NCBI RefSeq assembly: GCF_004010195.1 | Contig: NW_025214154.1 | Location: 1-39,853, forward strand | Length of the DNA: 39,853 nucleotides | From: Chiloscyllium plagiosum | Taxonomy: Eukaryota | Reading direction: 5' to 3' | Shown: positions 1-39,853 of the stretch, piece after piece | Layout: each line of letters opens with the position of its first letter | Numbering within the stretch: position 1 is the first letter of the stretch | The notes under the pieces: generated by a model | What the model was told of the DNA's origin: nothing | The model's input: only the letters and a program-made list of their open reading frames with translations | Databases searched by the model: none | Translations under genes and position numbers: made by a program

Positions 1-1
1 C

Positions 2-1975
2 TCAGCAGCCGCTCGCAGCCCTGGCCAGGGCATTCGCAACACAGTCAGGGTGACTGTGAAGAAGGTGGAGGAGCGGTCGATCGGACGGTGTTTGTGAAGA
101 AGATTTTGCTGGAGTGCTGCGGGTTTGAAGCAGTGGACGTGTACTTCCTGCAGGATTTCCCTGCGGCAGGCTATTTCGATGTGACCTTCAGGAGCTGCTC
201 GCAATTCTTCACGCTCCTGAAGGTCTTCAAGGAGAAGGAAGGGGAATCTCTGTTCTCCATTTTGTCGGCGGTCCCATTGTGTGTGCTTCCTGCGTAAAGG
301 AGTTGGGTTGTAACAATCCAGATGTACAACTCTCACGTCCCAGCAGCAGATGTCCCGACCTTCTTGAGAAGATATGTCCAGGTCGAGGGAGAGAGTACCG
401 ATGTGGTCGATCCTTTCGGGATCTGGACCAGCAAACAACAGGTCAGGGTAACCCTGAGGGTCGATGCCAGTGGGAACATCCTCCACCCACCCTCCAGCTT
501 TGCCATCGGAGGAAGCAGAGGTTACCTGACATACGCAGGGCAGCCAAAAGTGTGCCGAACCTGCGGGAGGTCAGGCCACATGGCGGCGGATTGTAAGGTG
601 ACCGTCTGCCGAAACTGCAAGCAGGAAGGCCACCCGACCAAGGAAAGTAAGGAGGCCAAAACTGTAATCTGTGCGGAGAGGCGGGCCACATCTACAAGGC
701 CTGCCGAAGACGAGGGGCCGCCACTTACGCACAGATGGCTGGAGAATTGTGAGCAGCTCCTGAAGGTCTTCAAGGAGAAGGAAGAGGAGCTGCTGTTCTC
801 CATCTTGTCGGCGGTCCCGTTGTGTGTGCTTCCTGCGCAGAGGAGTCGGGTGGTTACAATCCATATGTACAACCCCCATGTCCCAGCAGCTGATGTTCTG
901 ACCTTCCTGAGAAGATACGTCCAGGTTGAGGGAGAAAGCACTGATGTGGTCGACCCTTTCGGGATCTGGACCAGCAAACGGCAGGTCAGGATAAATCTGA
1001 GGGTCGATGCCAGTGGGAACATCCTCCATCCACCCTCCAGCTTTGCAATCGGAGGGAGCAGAGGGTACCTGACGTACGCAGGGCAGCCAAAAGTGTGCTG
1101 AACCTGCGGGAGGTCAGGCCACATGGAGGCGGACTGTAAGGTCACTATCTGTTGGAACTACAAGCAGGAGGGTCACCCAACCAAGGAATGCAAAGAGGCC
1201 AAGAACTGTAATCTGTGCGGAGAGGTGGGCCACATGTACAAGGCCTGCCCAAGATGAGGGGCCGCCACCTACACACAGATGGCCAGAGGTGGCAATGTGA
1301 GCTGTGGACTGCCAAAGGCCAGCAAGCTACCACAAACCAGCAGGGGAACGGTGTCTGAGGGCACCCAAAAGGAAGGGGCAGAGCAGGCGGCAGCCAGTGG
1401 GGAGGTGCAGCAGCCAATCCAAGCTCCCACATGTCAGACGGACGAAATGGAGGAGGAGCAAACCAAGCAGGCAGAAGACTGGATTCGTGTAAAAAACAGG
1501 ATGAGGAAATCTGGCCAGGCCCCCAAAGCCCCCCAGCAAAGGGGGAAACGACACCTGCGTGAGGAGGATACGGGCAGCTCTTCAGATGGTGAGAACTGGT
1601 GTAAGGAGGGTCGTCACCAGAGGAAGAGACAGAGTGCAGCACCCCCAAACAGGAAATGACAAACCCTCTGAGGGGGCTGGTAAAAGCACCCCCCACCTGG
1701 TGAGAACCAAGAAATACCCACCACCCAAAAGCTCCAGGTAACTGGGAGCAGCGATCCACTGACAGCCCTGCTGTCAGACAGAGAATGGGACTGTGCGAAC
1801 CCTGGGCCCTACCTGAAGACACCAGAGCAGGGAAATGCCTGCAGCGTGAAGCCAGACAGCTACCTCAGCCCTGCGAGTGTCCAGCAGTTCGCGTTCACCA
1901 CAGGAATGCAGATAGCTACCCCAGAGAGGCTGGACCAGCAGCAAGTGAACACTGGTAACCTCATAAATGGTTAAA
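2..1975 (+). pseudogene. Tx1 ORF1 (RRM-like plus CCHC zinc knuckles, ZCCHC3-like), disrupted and internally duplicated
   Basis: Translations include FLQDFPAAGYFDVTF, RVVTIHMYNPHVPAADVLTFLRRY, GIWTSKRQV, GQPKVCRTCGRSGHMAADC and CRNCKQEGH, followed by a low-complexity C-terminus. In-frame stops at 295-297 and 1099-1101. Confidence 0.85.
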
Positions 1976-2660
1976 ATGGGAATAAAAATTGCCAGTATTA
2001 ATGTGCATAGCATTAATTCTGCTACGCGATGTGTCTCTACGTTGGCCTTCCTGCAGCAGCCCCAACGGGTAAGAGTGAACGGTTGGCCATCCTGCAGCAG
2101 CTTCCACTGTTGCTGGCTATGTCCAGGCTGGACATTCTGGCCAGAGACTTCAACTGTATCATTGATGCAGATGGACGATCCGGTTGGGGGGACAGTAAAC
2201 TGGACACCACGTCCAGAGTCCTGATGGAAACGGTCAAAGATGCCAAGCTGCACGATGTCTTCAGCACCCCTGCAGATGGAGCGCAGCATAGATACACCTG
2301 GTCACGGGCAGACGGGTCTATCCGCTCAAGGATAGATTACCTGTTTGTGTCCCGAACGCTCTCGGTCAGATCCACCGACGTCAAGCCGGTGTTCTTCTCT
2401 GACCACTGCCTCCTGCTGGCCGACTGTCACCTACAGGACGAGCAGCGGCTGGTAAGGGAACGTGGAAGCTGAATACACAGCTGTTGACCCCGGGAAACAT
2501 TGAGGAGCTCAAGAGGGACTACGCAGGTTGGAGAACCGTGAAGCCCCTCTTTGAGCCCCCAGCGGACTGGTGGGAAACACTAAAAGGGAACATCAAGAGA
2601 TTCTTCATCCTCAAAGGTGTTCAGGCGGCAAGAAAGAGAGGCAGGGAAACTGTTCCACAA
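1976..2660 (+). pseudogene. Tx1 ORF2 N-terminus: APE-type endonuclease with internal deletion, plus linker
   Basis: MGIKIASINV start, then DFNC, YTW, SRIDYLFVS, FFSDH, WKLN and WWETLKGNIKRFF motifs across frames. Confidence 0.88.
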
Positions 2661-2669
2661 CTCCACTTT

Positions 2670-3358
2670 CTTTTTTTTTATTTCAAAATGTACTTTATTC
2701 ATAGAAATAAATCTTTGATACTTGTACAATTTGTCATGTCGTTCATAGATATATACATTGCGTGTCTTAAACATTACAAAGAACAGATTGAATTACTCGA
2801 ATTTACAGTTATCCTATTTACAGTTCCCTTTATTAACCATCCAGTAAATTGACATATGCAGGGCATCTCTTGTTATTTAGCTGTGGCTTCAGCAGAACCC
2901 ACCTACTGAGTGGGTGCCCTGTTATACAATAGCAAATGAACCTTTTTTAATCCCAGTTTATGGGGTTACCGTTGTCCATTTGACTGTCCTGTCTCTGGGG
3001 TAGCTGTCTGCATCCCCATAGTGAGCACGAACTGCTGGACCCTCGCTGGGCTGAGGTAGCTATTCAGGCTCTCACTGGGGTCATTTACCTGCTCTGGAGT
3101 CATTGAGCCAAGGCAAGGGTCCGCACTGTCCAGTTCTGTGTCTGACAATGGGACTGTCAGAGGATCGCAGCTCTCAGTTGTCTGTGGTTGTGGGGCAGTG
3201 GGTACCCCCTGGTTCTCACCAGGTGGAAGGTGGACTTCGGGGGGTCCGTTGTTTCCTGGTTGGGAGGAAATGCCCTCCTCTTTATCTACGGTGCTCTGTC
3301 TCTTCTTCTGGTGGTGATGACATTCTGTGCGCCCGTCTCCCCCATCCGAAGAGCTGGC
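2670..3358 (-). mobile_element. 5'-truncated, ORF2-less Tx1 derivative (ORF1 C-terminus + 3'UTR + poly(A)) inserted antisense into the host Tx1
   Basis: On the minus strand an ORF ending SYLSPARVQQFVLTMGMQTATPE matches host ORF1 SYLSPASVQQFAFTTGMQIATPE (~1855-1925). It is followed by 3'UTR blocks matching host 5400-5450 and 5525-5600, AATAAA and an A-run (T-run at 2671-2679 on +). Confidence 0.85.
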
Positions 3359-5381
3359 CGGGAAGCGACGGCTTACCGGTCGAGCTCTATTCCACTGTGT
3401 GGGACTTGATTGTGGCCAGGACCTGCTGGAGGTGTATGTCAGTATGCTTCGGGCAGGTACCGTGAGTGAATCCATGAGGAAAGGCATCATCACCCTCATC
3501 TACAAGCGGAAGGGGGAGAGGGAGGTTCTCAGAAATTGGAGACCAATCTCACTATTGAATGCGGATTACAAAATCTTGGCAAATATCATCGCCAACTGTG
3601 TCAGGTCTGCTCTGGGGTCGGTGATTCACCCTGACCAAACCTGTGCTGTGCCGGGCAGGAAGATCACTGAGAGTCTCGCACTCCTCAGGGATACGATTGC
3701 CTAGTGCTGGACAGAGGGTTGGACACCTGCCTCATCAGCCTGGACCAGGAGAAAGTCTTTGACAGGATAACATACACGTATATGAGAGATGTTCTCTCCA
3801 AAATGGGCTTTGTGGAGGGAATCTGCAATTGGATCAGACTGCTCTACACCAACATTGTCAGTGCAGTCTCAATCAATGGGTGGGAATCAGATAGCTTCCC
3901 AGTCAGATCTGGAGTCAGGCAGGGCTGCCCTCTCTCTCCTGCCTTGTTCATGTGCTGCATAGAGCCATTTGCCGAGTCCATCAGGAAAGATGCGAGCCTG
4001 AGAGGGGTGACTATTCCTGGCTGTGGGGGCCTGCAGGTTAAAGGCTCCCTGTACGTGGATGACATCGCCATTTTCTGCTCGGATCCGCTGTCCGTGCGCA
4101 GACTCATGTGCATATGTGACCAGTTCGAATGGGCCTTGGGGGCCAAGGTAAACCGAGGAAAGAGCAAGGCCATGCTCTTCGGGAACTGAGCCGACCAATC
4201 CTCCATCCCCTTCATCGTCAGGACTGACCACCTGAAGGTGCTGGGTATTTGGTTTGGAGGGGCTGGGGCGTGCGCCAAGTCTTGGGGGGAGAGTATCAAG
4301 AAAGTGAGGCAGAAACTGGGCAGATGGAAGCTATGGTCGCTCTCCTACGCGGGTAAAAACCTGGTCATCAGGTGTGAGGCACTGTCAGTGTTGTTGTATG
4401 TGGCACAGGTCTGGCTTATTCCCAGGACCTGTGCCATTGCAGTCACCCGGGCCATCTTCCATTTCATATGGAGATCAAAGATGGACCGGGTCCGAAGGGA
4501 CTCGATGTACAAAGCTCTGGGCAACATGGAAAAAAACACACCAATGCCACCCTCAGCCCGATAGCCACCTTTGTGTGTGGCTGCATCAAGCTGAGCGTGG
4601 ATCCCCGGTACGCAAACACAAAGTATCACTACGTACTGAGGTTCTACCTGTCCCCGGTGTTGCGAAGGATGGGCCTGGTTTCGCTGCCGCGCAATGCTCT
4701 AAGTAGTTGGACCGTTCCGTATCACCTGTCCTTTGTAGAGAAATTTATGAAGAAAAACACCCTTGACCACAAGTCCATCAGGAAGTGTCAGCACGTAGTG
4801 TCCTTGAGACTCTTTGGGAAAAGGAGAGGGCGGATCCTATCGAGCGGTCCCCTGAGCAGACTGTCAAAGTCATTTGGCAGAATGCCTCATCGCCAGAACT
4901 TTCCAACAAGCACCAAGACATGGCTTGGCTGGTGGTGAGAAGGGCTCTGCCTGTGAGATCCTTTATGCACGCCCGGACTCTCAGCCGCACCGCACGCTGC
5001 CCTCGAAGGGGCTGCGGGGGGGACGAGACTGTCACACACCTCCTTCTGGAATGTGCCTATGCAGAAGAAGTCTGGGGAGGAATGCAGTGGTGTTTGTCGA
5101 GGTTCGTCCCGAGCAGCTCCGTGACGTGAGACTCCGTGCTCTACGGCCTGTTCCCTGGGACGCACACCGAGACGAACATCATCTGTGCCTGGAGGATCAT
5201 CAACTCAGTCAAAGATGCTCTTTTGTCTGTCCAAAACCTGTTGATCTTCCAGCTGAAGGAGTTGACCCCGACTGAGTGTTGCAGAGTTGCACATTTCAAG
5301 GTCCAGGACTACATGTTGAGGGACGCGCTGAAGGTTGGGGCAGCTGCCGCCAAGGCACAGTTGGAAAAGACCATCGTGTAA
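3359..5381 (+). pseudogene. Tx1 ORF2 reverse transcriptase and C-terminal zinc finger, frameshifted
   Basis: PGSDGLPVELY, NWRPISLLNADYKILA, SLDQEKVFDR, GVRQGCPLSP, LYVDD (~4049-4063) and CPRRGCGGDETVTHLLLEC motifs; stop codon ends at 5381. Confidence 0.92.
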
Positions 5382-5600
5382 CGTCTGCCTGCCTAAGAAT
5401 AGGAGGCCCACGCAGTAAGTGGGCTCCACTGACGCCTCAGCTAAATATATGGATGGTAAACATACAGACTTGTATATATGAATGACTAATTCCAATCTCT
5501 GTATGTAAAGAAATGCAAGGTGTGCCTATGAATGACACCACCAATTGTACAGATCATCAAAATATTTATGAATAAAGTATATTTTTGAAATTAAAAAAAA

Positions 5601-6120
5601 GGACATTGATGGGTTAGATAGAGAAAAACTTTACCCCATTGTAGAGATGTCAATAACCAGTTTTATGGTAAGGAGCAGGGGGTTCAGAGGGAATTTGAAG
5701 AAAGATTTTATTCATCCAGAGGGTGGACCTCGCTGCCTGAAAAGGGTGGTAGAGGCATGAACCCTCAAGAAACTTAAGAAGTGGAAGGGGAAAAATTTAA
5801 AAGGGACTTATAAGGGGCAACGTTTTCATGCAGAGAGTGGTGCAGGAATGGAATAAGCTGCCAGAGGAAGTGGTAGAGGCTGGTACAGTTACAACATTTT
5901 AAAGACATCTGGATGACTACATAAATAAGAAGGGTTTGGAAGGATATGGGCTAAATGTTGGCAAATCAGACTAGATTAAGCTGGATGGGTTGGACCAAAG
6001 GGTCTGTTCCTATGCTGTACAACCCCACGACTCTACAACTCTAAGTATATAACTGAGCACTTCAAGTACCACAGCATACCTGGAATACAGGATGGAAAAG
6101 GGTCTTGAACAGATTCTTGT
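5601..6120 (+). mobile_element. Nested CR1/HER1-type LINE 3' fragments
   Basis: Typical CR1 3' ORF2/UTR sequence (tggaataagctgccagaggaagtggtagaggc...ggatgggttggaccaaagggtctgtt) with an actcta-type tail at ~6030-6043, lying within an older CR1 end. Confidence 0.75.
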
Positions 6121-6421: not shown

Positions 6422-6704
6422 TTGCAGTGGGAGAGGGACTCCCTGAGATTCTTGTAGAGAGAGGAGGAAAACTTCTTCAAGGCAGGCATCCTTGCAAGAG
6501 GATTCGCAGTAGGGTTAAAATCAACGAGGTAAAAACAATGACTGCAGATGCTGGAAACCCCACCCCAACCCTCCTCTAGCTTATGTCTCCACACTTCAGG
6601 CTCACTGCCTTTATTCCTGATGAAGGGCTTTTGCCCGAAACGTCGATTTCGAAGCTCCTTGGATGCTGCCTGAACTGCTGTGCTCTTCCAGCACCACTAA
6701 TCCG
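6422..6704. mobile_element. Penelope-like element fragment: inverted 5' piece plus pseudo-LTR piece, with TSD
   Basis: 6558-6704 matches the pLTR at 12230-12360. 6422-6557 is the adjacent terminal region in reverse orientation. Flanked by GTCAACCTGTTTG (6409-6421) and GTCAACTTGTTTG (6705-6717). Confidence 0.75.
6613..6648 (+). ncRNA. Minimal type I hammerhead ribozyme motif (PLE-associated), intact core
   Basis: CTGATGA (6617-6623), A, GGGC-TTTT-GCCC stem II, GAAA (6637-6640), CGTC: palindromic helix III with a GUC cleavage triplet. Confidence 0.8.
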
Positions 6705-10019: not shown

Positions 10020-10655
10020 CATGAATTGTTTCAGGAGATGCAAGTGTCACTGGCAGGGGCAGTGTTTTTTGCTCATCCTTAATTGCCCTTGAGAAGGTGG
10101 TCTTGAGCTGCCTTGTTGAGCCTCTGAAGGCTGTATGGTGAATGTACATGGACAGTGCTGTTAGAGAGGAAGTTCTGGGATCTTGACTCAACAACAGTGT
10201 AGGGTATGATTCCAAATCAGGATGGTATGTGGCTTGGAGCCAAAACTTCCAGTGGTGCTGTTCCTGTTACGTATTTTCTATCCTTGACCTTCAAGATGGT
10301 AGAGGTCACAGGATTCGAAGGTGCTTTTGAAGGACCCTTGGCAAGCTGCTATAGTGCGTTTTCAGAATGGTACATCCCTCCTAACACAGTGTGGAGGGAG
10401 TGAATGTGTAACTTAGTGGATAGGTTGCTGAGTAAGCTGGCTGCTCTGTCCTGGATGGTGTCGAGCTTCTTGAGAGTCATTGGAACTGCATTCAGCCAGG
10501 CAGCTGGAGACCATTCTATCTTACTGTTGTCTTGTGTCTTGTAGATGGTGGACAGACATGGGGAATCAGTAGGTGAGTGACACACCTCAGGACTCCTAGG
10601 CTGTTCCAGCACTTGTAACCACTGTATTGATTAGCCAATCCAGTTCTGTTTCTGG
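10020..10655 (-). mobile_element. CR1-group LINE (second family) ORF2 C-terminus and 3' end; resumes at 12362-~12500 after the PLE insertion
   Basis: Minus ORF IYKTQDNSKIEWSPAAWLNAVPMTLKKLDTIQDRAASLL resembles a post-RT LINE region. Related sequence occurs at 17345-17720 (-), 18380-18680 (+) and ~34200-34440. Confidence 0.65.
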
Positions 10656-10724
10656 GCAAAAGTGAGGACTGCAGAGTTTAGATCAGAAAGCACAGCAGGT
10701 CAGGTAGCATCCGAGGAGCAGGAA

Positions 10725-10760
10725 AAGCGACGTTTTGGGCAAAAGCCCTTCATCAGGAAT
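10725..10760 (-). ncRNA. Hammerhead motif with GAAA mutated to AAAA (probably inactive)
   Basis: Minus strand reads ATTC-CTGATGA-A-GGGC-TTTT-GCCC-AAAA-CGTC. Confidence 0.65.
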
Positions 10761-11047
10761 AGAGGCAGGAAGCGTCCAGAGTGGAGAGATAAATGGGGGG
10801 TGGGGAGGTTGGGGGCTGGGGAGAAGGTAGCAAAGAGTACAATAGGTGAATGGGGGTGGAGATGGACGTGATAGGTCAGAGAGGAGGGTGAGGGAAGGTA
10901 GCAAAGAGTACAATAGGAGAATGGGGGTGGGGATGGAGGTGATAGGTCAAAGGGGATGGCGGAGTGGATAGGTGGAAAGGAAGATAGGCAGGTAGTACAA
11001 GTTAATGAGGAAACTGGTGAAGTCCACATTGATGCCCTGGGGTTGAA

Positions 11048-15357: not shown

Positions 15358-15956
15358 TAGAGTCATAGAGTAAGAGAGAGTTTCCAGCAGAGCAACAGAC
15401 CCTTCAGTCCATCCCGTCCATGCTGACCAGATATCCCAAATTAATCTAATCCTATTTGCCAGCAGTTGGCCCAAATCCATCTAAACTCTTCCTATTCATA
15501 TACCCATCCAAATGCCTTTTAAATGTTGTACTTGTACCAGCCACCATCACGTCCTCTAGCAACTCATTCCATAGATGCATCACCCTCTGTGTGAAAAGGT
15601 TGCCCCTTCAGGTCCCTTTTAAATATTTTCCCTCTCACTGTAAACCTATACCTTCTAGTTCTGGATTCCCCCACTCCAGGGAAAAGACCTTGTCTATTTA
15701 CCCTATCCATGCCCCTCATGGTGTTATAAACATCTATAAAGTCACCCTTTAGCCTTGACATTCCAGGGAAAACAGCCCCAGTCTATTCAGCCTCTCCCGA
15801 TGTCTCAAACCTTTCAACCCTGGCAACATCCTTGTAAATTCTTTTTTGAACCCTTTCAAGTTTCACAACTTCCTTCCTATAGGAAGGAGATCAGAATTGC
15901 ACACAATATTCCAAAAGTGGCCTAATCAATGTCCTGTACAGCCGCAACATGACCTT
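15358..15956 (-). mobile_element. CR1/HER1 LINE 3' fragment
   Basis: RLKGDFIDVYNTMRGMDRVNRQGLFP translation, tagagtcatagag tail, and strong similarity to 38965-39555. Confidence 0.88.
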
Positions 15957-17432: not shown

Positions 17433-17680
17433 GTGCTCTCAGAGAGGATTTTGATCTGACGACACTGAAGAAAGTATGGTATAATTCTGAGTCTGAATGG
17501 TATTTGACTTGGAGGGAATCTTGCAAGCAGTGGTTGTAGAGGTCTCGGGTTTGGGGGTGCTCTCAGAGAGGATTTTGATCTGACGACACTGAAGGAAGTA
17601 TGGTATAATTCTGAGTCTGAATGGTATTTGACTTGGAGGGAATCTTGCAAGCAGTGGTTGTAGAGGTCTCGGGTTTGGGA
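17433..17680. repeat. 124-bp tandem duplication inside a LINE relic
   Basis: 17433-17556 and 17557-17680 are identical except for about 2 positions. Confidence 0.95.
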
Positions 17681-23449: not shown

Positions 23450-23759
23450 AATCTATCCAGTATTACTGCTTTTTTGCTTTGCTCTTATTGAGTGGTAATT
23501 TGCCTCTGAAAATCCTTGCCTATGGCAAGATTCTAGATTTTAGTGATAATGTTCCTGTGAAGCATCTTGCAACATTAAAAGGCGCCAAATAAATGTACAT
23601 CACACACTCGCAACAAATAAGTTCATTGTCATAACAGTGGCAGGAAAACGCCGCGCTACTTATTTATCCAGAGGTACACTGGCATTCTCTGGAATTGGTC
23701 ACGTGGGAACTTCTCCAACCCACTAATCATCAGAAGTCTAACAATAATTGAGTACCTGA

Positions 23760-24017
23760 ACTATCTGTTCATATCTCTGTACCTCAGGCATTGCAACATG
23801 ACAGTGTCAGTCTGGACTATCTGTTCATATGTGTCCTCTAGACAATGCAACATTGCAGTATCAGTCTGGACTATCTGTTCATATCTCTGTACCTCTGACA
23901 GTGTCAGTCTGGACTACCTGTTCATATGTGTCCCTTAGACAGTGCAACATGACAGTATCAGTCTGGACTATCTGTTCATATCTCTGTACCTCAGACAGTG
24001 CAACATGACAGTGTCAG
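23760..24017. repeat. Minisatellite, five ~54-56 bp units alternating A/B, SINE-derived
   Basis: Unit actatctgttcatatctctgtacctcagacagtgcaacatgacagtgtcagtctgg. Units 1, 3 and 5 carry ctctgtacc; units 2 and 4 carry gtgtcc. Unit 3 has an internal deletion. Confidence 0.9.
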
Positions 24018-24024
24018 GATTGGG

Positions 24025-24267
24025 TACAAATAAGGACTGCAGATGCTGGACACCAGAGTCTAGATTAGAGTGGTGCTGAAAAAGCACAGCAGGTCAGGCA
24101 GCATCCAAGGAGCAGGAGTCTGGACTACCTGTTCATATCTACTTGTTCAGGTAGTGTAGACTGACACTGTCATGTTTGAGATTGTGGTACTGGAAAAACA
24201 CAGCAGGTCAGGTATCATCTGAGGAGTAGAAGAATCAACGTTTCGGGCATAAGCCCTTCCTCAGGAA
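24025..24267 (-). mobile_element. Two PLE terminal fragments (~24025-24116 and ~24177-24267) embedded in the minisatellite
   Basis: ggactgcagatgctgga...cacagcaggtcaggcagcatcc matches 10660-10725. Confidence 0.8.
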
Positions 24268-27089: not shown

Positions 27090-27391
27090 AGGCGAAAGTG
27101 AGCACTACAGATGCTGGAGATTAGAGTCAATATTAGAGTGGTGCTGGAAATGCACAGCATGTCAGGCAACATCCGAGGAGCAGGAAAATCGACGTTTCGG
27201 GCTGTGCATTTCCAGCACCACTCTAATCTCAACTTTATATGTAAGTAGCTGAAAATGTGTTGGTGGAAAAGCGCAGCAGGTCAGGGCATGAGTCCGATTC
27301 TCCTGTTCCTTTGATGCTGCCTGACCTGCTGCGCTTTTCCAGCAACACATTTTCAGCTCTGATCTCCAGCATCTGCAGTCCTCACTTTCTC
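27090..27391. mobile_element. Two adjacent fold-back PLE terminal insertions
   Basis: Hairpin 27132-27158/27201-27227 and hairpin 27247-27283/27321-27358. A target-like repeat occurs at 27080, 27233 and 27392. A truncated hammerhead half (cccgaaacgtcg, minus strand) lies at ~27190-27201. Confidence 0.8.
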
Positions 27392-38964: not shown

Positions 38965-39853
38965 CATAGAGTCAGAGGGCTGGACAGCACAGAAACAGAT
39001 CTTTTGGTCCAATTCGTCCATGTCGACCAGGTATCCTAAAGTAATCCAGTCCCATATGCCAGCATTTGGTCCATATCCCTCTAAATCCTTCCCAATCATT
39101 TACCTATCCTGATGTATTTTAAATGTTGTAATTGTACCGGACTTCACCACTTCATCTGGCAGTTTATTCCATACATGCACCACCCACTGCATGAAAAAGT
39201 TGTCCCTTTGTCCCCTTCTAAATCTTTCCCCTCTCATCTTAAACCTATGGCTTCTTGTTTTGGACTCCCCCACCCCAGGAAAAAGACCTTGACTATTCAC
39301 CCTATCCATGCCCCTCATGATTTTATAAACTTCTATTGTGTCACCCCTCAACCTCCAACACTCCAGGGAAAATAGCCCTAGTCTATTCAGCCTCTCCGTA
39401 TAGCTCAAACCCTCCAACCATGGCAACATCCTTGTAAATCTGTTCTGAATCCTTTCAAGTTTAACAACATCTTTCCTAAAGCAAGGCGACCAGAATTGGA
39501 AGCAGTATTCCAAAAGTCATCTAATCAATATCCTGTATAGCTGCAACATGACCTCCCAACTCCTATACTCAATGTACTGACCAATAAAGGCAAGCGTGCC
39601 AAATGCCTTCCTTCACTCTCCTGTCTACCTGCAGTTCCACTTTCAAGGAACCTGACTCCAAGGTTTCCTTGTTTGGCAACACTCCCCAGGACAATAGCAT
39701 TAAGTGTATAAGTCCTGCCCTGATTTGCCCTACCAAAATGTAGCACCTCAGATTTATCTAGATCAAACTCCATCTGCCACTCCTCAGCCCATCGGACTAG
39801 CTGATCAATGTCCTGCTGTACTTTACGGTAACCTTCTTTGCTGTCCATAACAC
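38965..39853 (-). mobile_element. CR1/HER1 LINE ORF2 C-terminus and 3' end, running off the window
   Basis: QQDIDQLVRWAEEWQMEFDLDKSEVLHFG and EYCFQFWSP...LERIQNRFTRMLP...LGLFSLE...LRGD translations; catagagtcagag tail. Confidence 0.92.

Follow-up and report, generated by a model that had tools for sequence, protein, structure and literature searches.

We identified, in the shark Chiloscyllium plagiosum, a family of retrotransposed elements that retain ORF1 and lack ORF2. Our reading, to which we assign a probability of roughly 85%, is that this ORF1-only LINE family derives from a Tx1-like parent, has an ORF1 maintained by selection and is likely copied in trans by the ORF2 protein (ORF2p) of a co-resident autonomous element. 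The starting point was a stretch of 39,853 nucleotides (assembly GCF_004010195.1, contig NW_025214154.1, positions 1 to 39,853, forward strand), referred to below as the window, which contains one copy of the family inside a Tx1-like host LINE.

An ORF1-only copy inserted in an autonomous LINE

The features of the window copy and its host, in window positions, are as follows.

1..2665, plus strand: 5' part of the host autonomous Tx1-like LINE, with a decayed ORF1 (93.6% to the U1-headed subfamily) and the start of ORF2 (endonuclease)
135..152, plus strand: ORF1 hotspot site, empty in the window host; about 95-150 is homologous to 5' tags on some copies
2666..3358, minus strand: 5'-truncated copy of the ORF1-only family, the 3' 0.67 kb of the 1.9-kb element
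2966..3358, minus strand: C-terminal 130 codons of ORF1 plus stop, outside the RRM/zinc-knuckle part and with no Pfam hit
2941..2965, minus strand: relic of the inter-ORF spacer and the first ORF2 codons, the ORF2-start relic itself being 2956-2941
2924..2940, minus strand: 17 nt at the deletion junction, common to the family
2680..2923, minus strand: 3'UTR, homologous to the autonomous 3'UTR (about 69% overall, 80% over the last 80 nt)
2846..2866, minus strand: 21-nt insertion private to the window copy, absent from the other 29 aligned loci and from all loci fetched
2699-2694, minus strand: AATAAA within the 3'UTR of the window copy
2666..2679, minus strand: A-rich tail
3359..5599, plus strand: 3' part of the host LINE, with RT, zf-RVT, 3'UTR and A-tail, starting again 432-440 bp beyond the end of the 5' part

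On the minus strand, the reading frame was open from 3499 to a TAA at 2966-2968, and 130 codons of it (3358-2969) lay inside the insert. The insert aligned with host ORF1 at 1687-1976 with 77% identity (226/295 nt, E 5e-52), an alignment that ran through the relic of the ORF1/ORF2 junction, and with the host 3'UTR at 5407-5447 (34/41) and 5526-5601 (65/81). A preliminary description of the window had reported an ORF1 C-terminus ending at 2966 on the minus strand, about 130 open codons diverged from the host, a host-like ORF1/ORF2 junction, and a 3'UTR resembling host 5400-5600 with AATAAA and an A-tail; all of these were recovered at the positions given here. The window copy was 97.6% identical to the majority sequence of the young subfamily (650 matches, 16 mismatches). 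It lies antisense within the host LINE, which has lost 432-440 bp of ORF2 at the insertion site, as measured against eight autonomous copies (a ninth, L079, was excluded because its alignment starts too late). No target-site duplication was found. The window copy is a dead product, inserted antisense with a target deletion.

The host itself is rearranged elsewhere. Its ORF1 contains a 543-bp tandem duplication at 213-1298 (213-512 versus 756-1055, 89% alike), which spans the second RRM and the zinc knuckles, and its endonuclease region has an apparent second internal deletion at about 2050-2110, where matches to autonomous copies break after about 2053. Autonomous fragments starting near one ORF2 position (about 2994-3015 of the reference) recur, at window 3359, L064, L234 and L396, and in three cases, the window included, such a fragment stands head-to-head with an ORF1-only copy; this recurrent start may reflect either the edge of an alignment or a site of stalling. 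The remainder of the window contains dispersed repeats (5600-6030, 15385-15955 and 38985-39554; 6528-6698, 10634-10805, 24028-24267 and 27096-27349), which may represent CR1-type LINE 3' ends and a shark SINE, and short tandem arrays at 17433-17679 and 23756-24017, with periods of 124 and 54/97.

One junction shared by many independent insertions

A search of the source genome with the junction region returned 849 candidates, and all 40 scored hits spanned the junction. The ORF1-to-3'UTR junction was identical in 30/30 aligned loci, and a 27-nt junction pattern allowing up to one mismatch gave 82 genomic matches, versus 0 for the reversed control. When older copies were used as queries, 36/36 further non-duplicate loci also spanned the junction. 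In total, we obtained at least 129 aligned rows, a lower bound because more matches were listed than fetched. Omitted from the counts were L086a, a partial duplicate, and 24 of the 60 loci from two older-copy searches, which were duplicates; 11 intermediate or poorly aligned rows were left out of the subfamily test, and rows with less than 85-88% coverage were left out of the trees. Thus ORF1 is kept and ORF2 is absent across the family.

A poly(A) tail, 5' truncation, target duplications and separate flanks are the marks of target-primed reverse transcription, and all of them were found among these copies. Readable 3' flanks in 127 rows included a single shared pair (L205/L295), and junction-bearing copies were spread over dozens of contigs. 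Their 5' ends were scattered from position 1 to 1640 of the 1.9-kb reference; 23 of the 79 ends not bounded by gaps reached the head, a share somewhat inflated by the few rows from a head search. Duplication candidates of at least 12 nt were present in 27/95 census records, a few of them probably by chance, and clean 12-19-bp duplications were seen, for example, in L051, L054, L058, L062, L066, L179, L195, L196 and L227. Most full-length copies had their own flanks and their own duplications. Several groups of copies (L177/L217/L295, L175/L203, L002/L222, L285/L296 and L302/L303) share a chimeric or truncated 5' junction and differ in the 3' flank, which suggests that they derive from secondary source copies.

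These observations bear on whether the junction arose through a single deletion that one copy suffered after its insertion, with segmental duplication possibly multiplying it. Although the window copy, with no target duplication and in a deleted host, and the common 3' flank of L205 and L295 are what such an event could leave behind, the flank census already refutes it, with one shared pair among 127 3' flanks, and the scattered 5' ends, individual duplications and dozens of contigs speak against it as well; we give it next to no chance. A junction unique to this locus, the case named beforehand as the one that would overturn the proposed family, is excluded by the same junction in at least 129 rows, and many independent poly(A)-tailed loci share it (82 pattern matches and 129 rows), as had been expected of a family.

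Structure, clade and origin of the family

The full-length element is about 1.9 kb long and consists of a U2-snRNA-derived head, an ORF1 of 480 codons and a 3'UTR. At the start of young full-length copies stands U2 snRNA sequence (nt 1 to about 52) missing a 5-nt stretch; the Rfam U2 model recognised this head in 6/6 copies tested at E 0.0002-0.04, with scores that fall short of the gathering threshold, as a fragment would be expected to. ORF1 is open over 480 codons in the young majority and over 483-490 in the majorities of three autonomous subfamilies; it contains two ZCCHC3-type RRMs followed by CCHC knuckles (Pfam). A single-sequence fold of the N-terminal part had a pLDDT of 39.9, too low to use. 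The closest named homologue of ORF1 was from Chiloscyllium punctatum (68%), followed by those of other sharks and rays. None of the 16 near-full-length copies had an intact ORF1, the longest being 426 codons, and accordingly no source copy was found.

A tree of the 3' part of ORF1 placed 40/40 ORF2-less rows in one clade, apart from 53 autonomous rows (support 0.89), and older, longer-branched ORF1-only copies were basal in it. A single ancestral deletion joined the end of ORF1 to the 3'UTR, and successive subfamilies followed. A pattern combining the ORF1-only C-terminus with an ORF2 start, used to find a closer autonomous parent, matched one locus; its relatives were 76-83% alike, and the locus itself fell outside the clade. 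Neither the ORF1-end pattern and the tree nor one comparison of the 3'UTR revealed an autonomous family with a closely matching ORF1 or 3'UTR; therefore, the parent is extinct or unsampled, and we infer the partner.

The host LINE contains Exo_endo_phos, RVT_1 and zf-RVT domains, that is, an APE endonuclease, an RT and a C-terminal zinc domain in a two-ORF arrangement, as in the Tx1 architecture. The best named match of the partner ORF2 was a Danio rerio "transposon TX1 uncharacterized 149 kDa protein" (42%, E 4e-99, 351 bits); the match to human L1 ORF2p scored 191 bits, far below both Tx1-named and unnamed fish and amphibian proteins. Judging from the named homologues and the architecture, membership in the Tx1 clade is likely. 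HAL1 in its strict form has an L1-clade parent and an L1-type ORF1p; this is not what we found, and ORF1 had no match to any L1 ORF1 family.

The RNA-binding domains of ORF1 bear on another explanation, in which the source would be a domesticated host gene, ZCCHC3-like and derived from a deleted LINE, the copies would be its processed pseudogenes, and selection would serve the host rather than mobility. ORF1 has the domains of ZCCHC3, ray homologues are annotated as ZCCHC3-like genes, and ZCCHC3 is reported to suppress L1 (PMC10351740, PMC9580041). However, the family comprises successive subfamilies with different heads (U2, U1 and layered), none of the 16 near-full-length copies is intact, and most full-length copies have flanks and duplications of their own; we regard domestication as very unlikely.

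Selection on ORF1 after the loss of ORF2

Between the ORF1-only and autonomous majority sequences, dN/dS was 0.24-0.26 (intervals 0.17-0.36), and on the family's own stem, which may predate the loss of ORF2, it was 0.17. Between the old and young ORF2-less subfamilies, dN/dS was 0.24. Fixed differences between the old and young majorities numbered 19.8 nonsynonymous to 23.2 synonymous, versus 404:148 among private mutations (p=0.0004). By part, the N-terminal portion gave p=0.0009; in the C-terminal portion alone, which is the part present in the window, selection was not significant (p=0.11). Of the 46 bases that differ between old and young, 33 carried new states that none of the three autonomous majorities has, and 4 matched the autonomous state alone; import by recombination therefore does not explain the differences. 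When the new states were polarised on the autonomous sequences, the 32 classifiable ones gave 15N:17S, again versus 404:148 (p=0.002), and this depletion of replacements indicates that source copies kept a working ORF1 without ORF2. There was no stop codon in any subfamily-majority ORF1. Purifying selection after ORF2 loss was thus detected over the whole ORF and over its N-terminal part.

By these data we could also weigh a passive, SINE-like origin, in which a bipartite LINE derivative owes its copying to nothing but its 3' end, and autonomous elements supply the ORF1 signal by descent or by recombination. An exchange of the head and 5'UTR with an autonomous subfamily is clear, and the stem value of 0.17 may predate ORF2 loss, as such an origin would allow. 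By contrast, the new states (33 of 46, with only 4 autonomous-state alone) were not imported, the 32 classifiable changes are depleted of replacements, and no subfamily majority contains a stop, and we consider a passive derivative very unlikely. The retention of ORF1 after ORF2 was lost points to an ORF1 protein (ORF1p) working for its own RNA, on which it would act. The dN/dS below 1 that the preliminary description had named as a sign of a family was thus seen against autonomous subfamilies (0.24-0.26) and between old and young ORF2-less subfamilies (0.24). Together with the junction shared across poly(A)-tailed loci, it supports the "half-Tx1" parasite family, spread as an ORF1-only RNA, that had been proposed there.

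A probable autonomous partner

Over their first 200 nt, young ORF1-only copies and the majority sequence of a U2-headed autonomous subfamily were 100% identical; beyond about nt 300, ORF1 was 66-90% alike. Such an identical start in front of a diverged ORF1 indicates that the head was exchanged between the ORF1-only and the autonomous subfamily. We had considered whether the U2 head is specific to the parasite, and rejected this since autonomous copies have it too. Median divergence was 2.7% for the young ORF1-only copies and 3.3% for the U2-headed autonomous subfamily, and the last 80 nt of the window copy were 80% identical to those of its host. The U2-headed autonomous subfamily is likely the partner, and the common head, 3' end, targets and age suggest that its ORF2p would mobilise the family in trans.

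Other ORF1-only copies have U1 heads (L378 and L393) or a layered head (L245). Stacked heads of up to four layers were seen in L398, L400, L245 and L386, with U1 pieces of varied length over U2 pieces and hotspot tags. L142 and L155 each contain three occurrences of one target duplication, around an ORF1-only copy and the adjoining autonomous fragment, and no duplication enclosing the whole chimera was found in L230-L234 or L057.

By the mechanism that we propose, ORF1p would coat its own RNA and join the partner's particle, and the partner's ORF2p would grip the common 3' end and poly(A) and prime reverse transcription at a nick. Heads and tags would be gained either when reverse transcription switches template or when transcription of a target reads through into a copy nested in it.

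Insertion at an ORF1 hotspot and in U1 genes

We then analysed what follows the A-tail. An A-tail joined to the ORF1 hotspot (homologous to window 135-152) gave 9 and 47 exact matches for two 3'-end types, with 0 in the controls. The hotspot was occupied by an ORF1-only copy in an autonomous host in L086, L120 and L208, and by an autonomous copy in an ORF1-only host in L373, L385 and L393. In seven loci (L086, L120, L208, L362, L365, L373 and L375), the host 5' part lies upstream together with a readable 11-18-bp duplication, which points to DNA cutting at the hotspot; template jumping as the only cause of hotspot junctions was rejected on the same seven. The host 5' part was missing at the hotspot junctions of L057, L150, L359 and L369, and many others lie behind assembly gaps.

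An A-tail followed by U1 from nt 38-44 gave 9 matches, 3 of them ORF1-only, with 0 in the controls; some of the C37 cases are members of a tandem array and possibly not independent events. The U1 identity in L298 was confirmed by Rfam (U1, 83.9 bits). A clean case is L382, in which a U1 gene with a shared upstream flank is interrupted by a truncated autonomous copy that shows a 10-bp duplication. At 10 of the 23 U1-matching loci (L401, L402, L405, L409, L410 and L415-L419), Tx1 or ORF1-only sequence starts 260-470 nt past U1 nt 40, just downstream of the U1 gene. In L377-L378, every A-tail is followed by a repeat of the U1 3' part and flank, a pattern resembling a very long duplication or a read-through unit.

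For U2, there was a single exact genome match, the autonomous copy L397, followed after its A-tail by U2 from about nt 39, which we take to be the Keno insertion site. None of the 127 ORF1-only 3' flanks, screened against Tx1, U1 and a U2 pattern, was seen as U2. After the A-tail, 11 of these copies had the hotspot (L220 being ambiguous), 2 had U1 and 95 had other DNA, and 15 had inserted into other Tx1 sequence in the same direction and 4, the window copy included, in the opposite direction. A tenth of the ORF1-only copies are therefore at sites also used by autonomous elements (hotspot and U1). Two antisense copies, L052 and L199, lie at nearly the same position of the Tx1 5'UTR, a possible second hotspot.

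No motif was found in the dispersed sites among 94 flanks of the 95, just G/T at the first positions; GTWCT occurred twice versus 0-2 times in control windows, and a shared target motif was rejected. Targeting is therefore a preference and not a rule. The preference itself was evident (56 hotspot and 9 U1 matches, controls 0) and weak overall, most ORF1-only copies being dispersed.

5' tags derived from the hotspot

Eight copies (L051, L052, L053, L056, L058, L060, L062 and L119) carry, upstream of the U2 head, a tag that corresponds to the ORF1 piece just before the hotspot. Wherever the duplication was readable (L051, L058, L062 and L119), the tag lay inside it. The tags begin 30-46 nt before the hotspot core and have variable ends, and 6/8 best match the layered-head subfamily, with a tie or near-tie in L056 and L058. 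That ORF1 piece is also a fixed component of the layered head, and L225 and L164 have each acquired it anew. In L118, the host 5' part and the nested element moved as one unit, which supports read-through from nested sources, and the varied tag junctions support template switching. Folding of one host 5' region (with no shuffle control) gave no explanation for the clustered tag start.

Tentatively, these sites may form a self-targeting system, in which autonomous and ORF1-only elements would both cut one site in their own ORF1 and one U1 site, an insertion would kill a rival and land behind its promoter, and the 5' ends of subfamilies would be stacked from U1, U2 and hotspot pieces. We put this forward as one possibility, more doubtful than not.

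Transcripts across the junction

In the poly(A) RNA run X22, of which about 2% was read, 311 reads mapped to the window copy, strongly on one strand. Twenty reads had loose poly(T) ends at 2685, and depth was 45-89 across the junction. Near-fixed differences and 35 reads that leave the copy at 3103 indicate that one short source predominates, and depth fell to about 1 further upstream. The X22 reads thus come mostly from one short source ending near 3103 and, with a depth of about 1 upstream, are not evidence of a full-length mRNA. Contigs spanning the junction were found in organism B (X10, 2773-3059) and organism C (X16, 2897-2999); organism D (X18) had depth at the junction and no spanning piece among the matches listed.

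Comparison with known elements

Non-autonomous LINEs that retain ORF1 are a named class, comprising HAL1 (from L1), HeT-A (from Jockey) and Ag-Sponge (from CR1), whose protein has been proposed to multimerise with that of the autonomous partner (PMC5786205). The origins given in that passage are Jockey, L1 and CR1, and Tx1 is not named in it; the shark family is Tx1-like. HeT-A and Ag-Sponge, as described there, resemble it in having retained ORF1 and lost ORF2; the shark family is dispersed and not telomeric. If our reading is right, the ORF1-only parasite strategy, known from the L1, Jockey and CR1 clades, is also used in a Tx1-like clade, with no new kind of element, and the retention of ORF1 after ORF2 loss can be tested within one family. 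Our searches of published papers showed no ORF1-only Tx1 element and no shark report.

The crocodilian element Tx1-Mar has U1/U2 heads, recurrent head addition and target-derived 5' extensions; it has a weak target preference in common with SINEU, and there are tandem insertions that sandwich a duplication (PMC4494074). The shark elements share with Tx1-Mar and SINEU the snRNA heads, head addition, target-derived 5' extensions, a preference common to both partners and the sandwiched duplication. Unlike SINEU, which is shorter than 500 bp, non-coding and targets Mariner (PMC4494074), the shark element is 1.9 kb long, codes for ORF1 behind its snRNA head and targets its own ORF1 and U1. The origin of snRNA heads, left open in that account, becomes approachable via the hotspot and the U1 site, and the same two sites provide defined substrates for the target choice of a Tx1 endonuclease.

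Among elements that target snRNA genes, Keno belongs to the Tx1 clade and targets U2 (PMC4494074, PMC4640811). L397, an autonomous copy followed by U2 from about nt 39, resembles it; the shark group differs in having one U2 case versus 9 for U1 and 56 for the ORF1 site, so that specific insertion into U2 was not observed. The snRNA-targeting elements listed in PMC4640811 are Keno and Utopia (U2), Dada-U1 and Dada-U6, with no non-LTR element for U1, and the DNA transposon Dada targets U1 (PMC3706591). If the self-targeting reading is true, the Tx1 clade would gain its first ORF1-only element in this family, and the group would be the first non-LTR elements that target U1 genes.

A close parallel is the mammalian half-L1, HAL1, which is non-autonomous and encodes ORF1p only (PMC5753468, PMC5786205). 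Both are ORF1p-only LINE derivatives in which loss of internal sequence has brought the 5' part next to the 3' tail; the shark family differs in its Tx1-like parent, its RRM-RRM-CCHC ORF1, its snRNA heads and the targets that it has in common with its partner. Taken together, the shark family works like HAL1, and is distinct from strict HAL1, Keno and SINEU.
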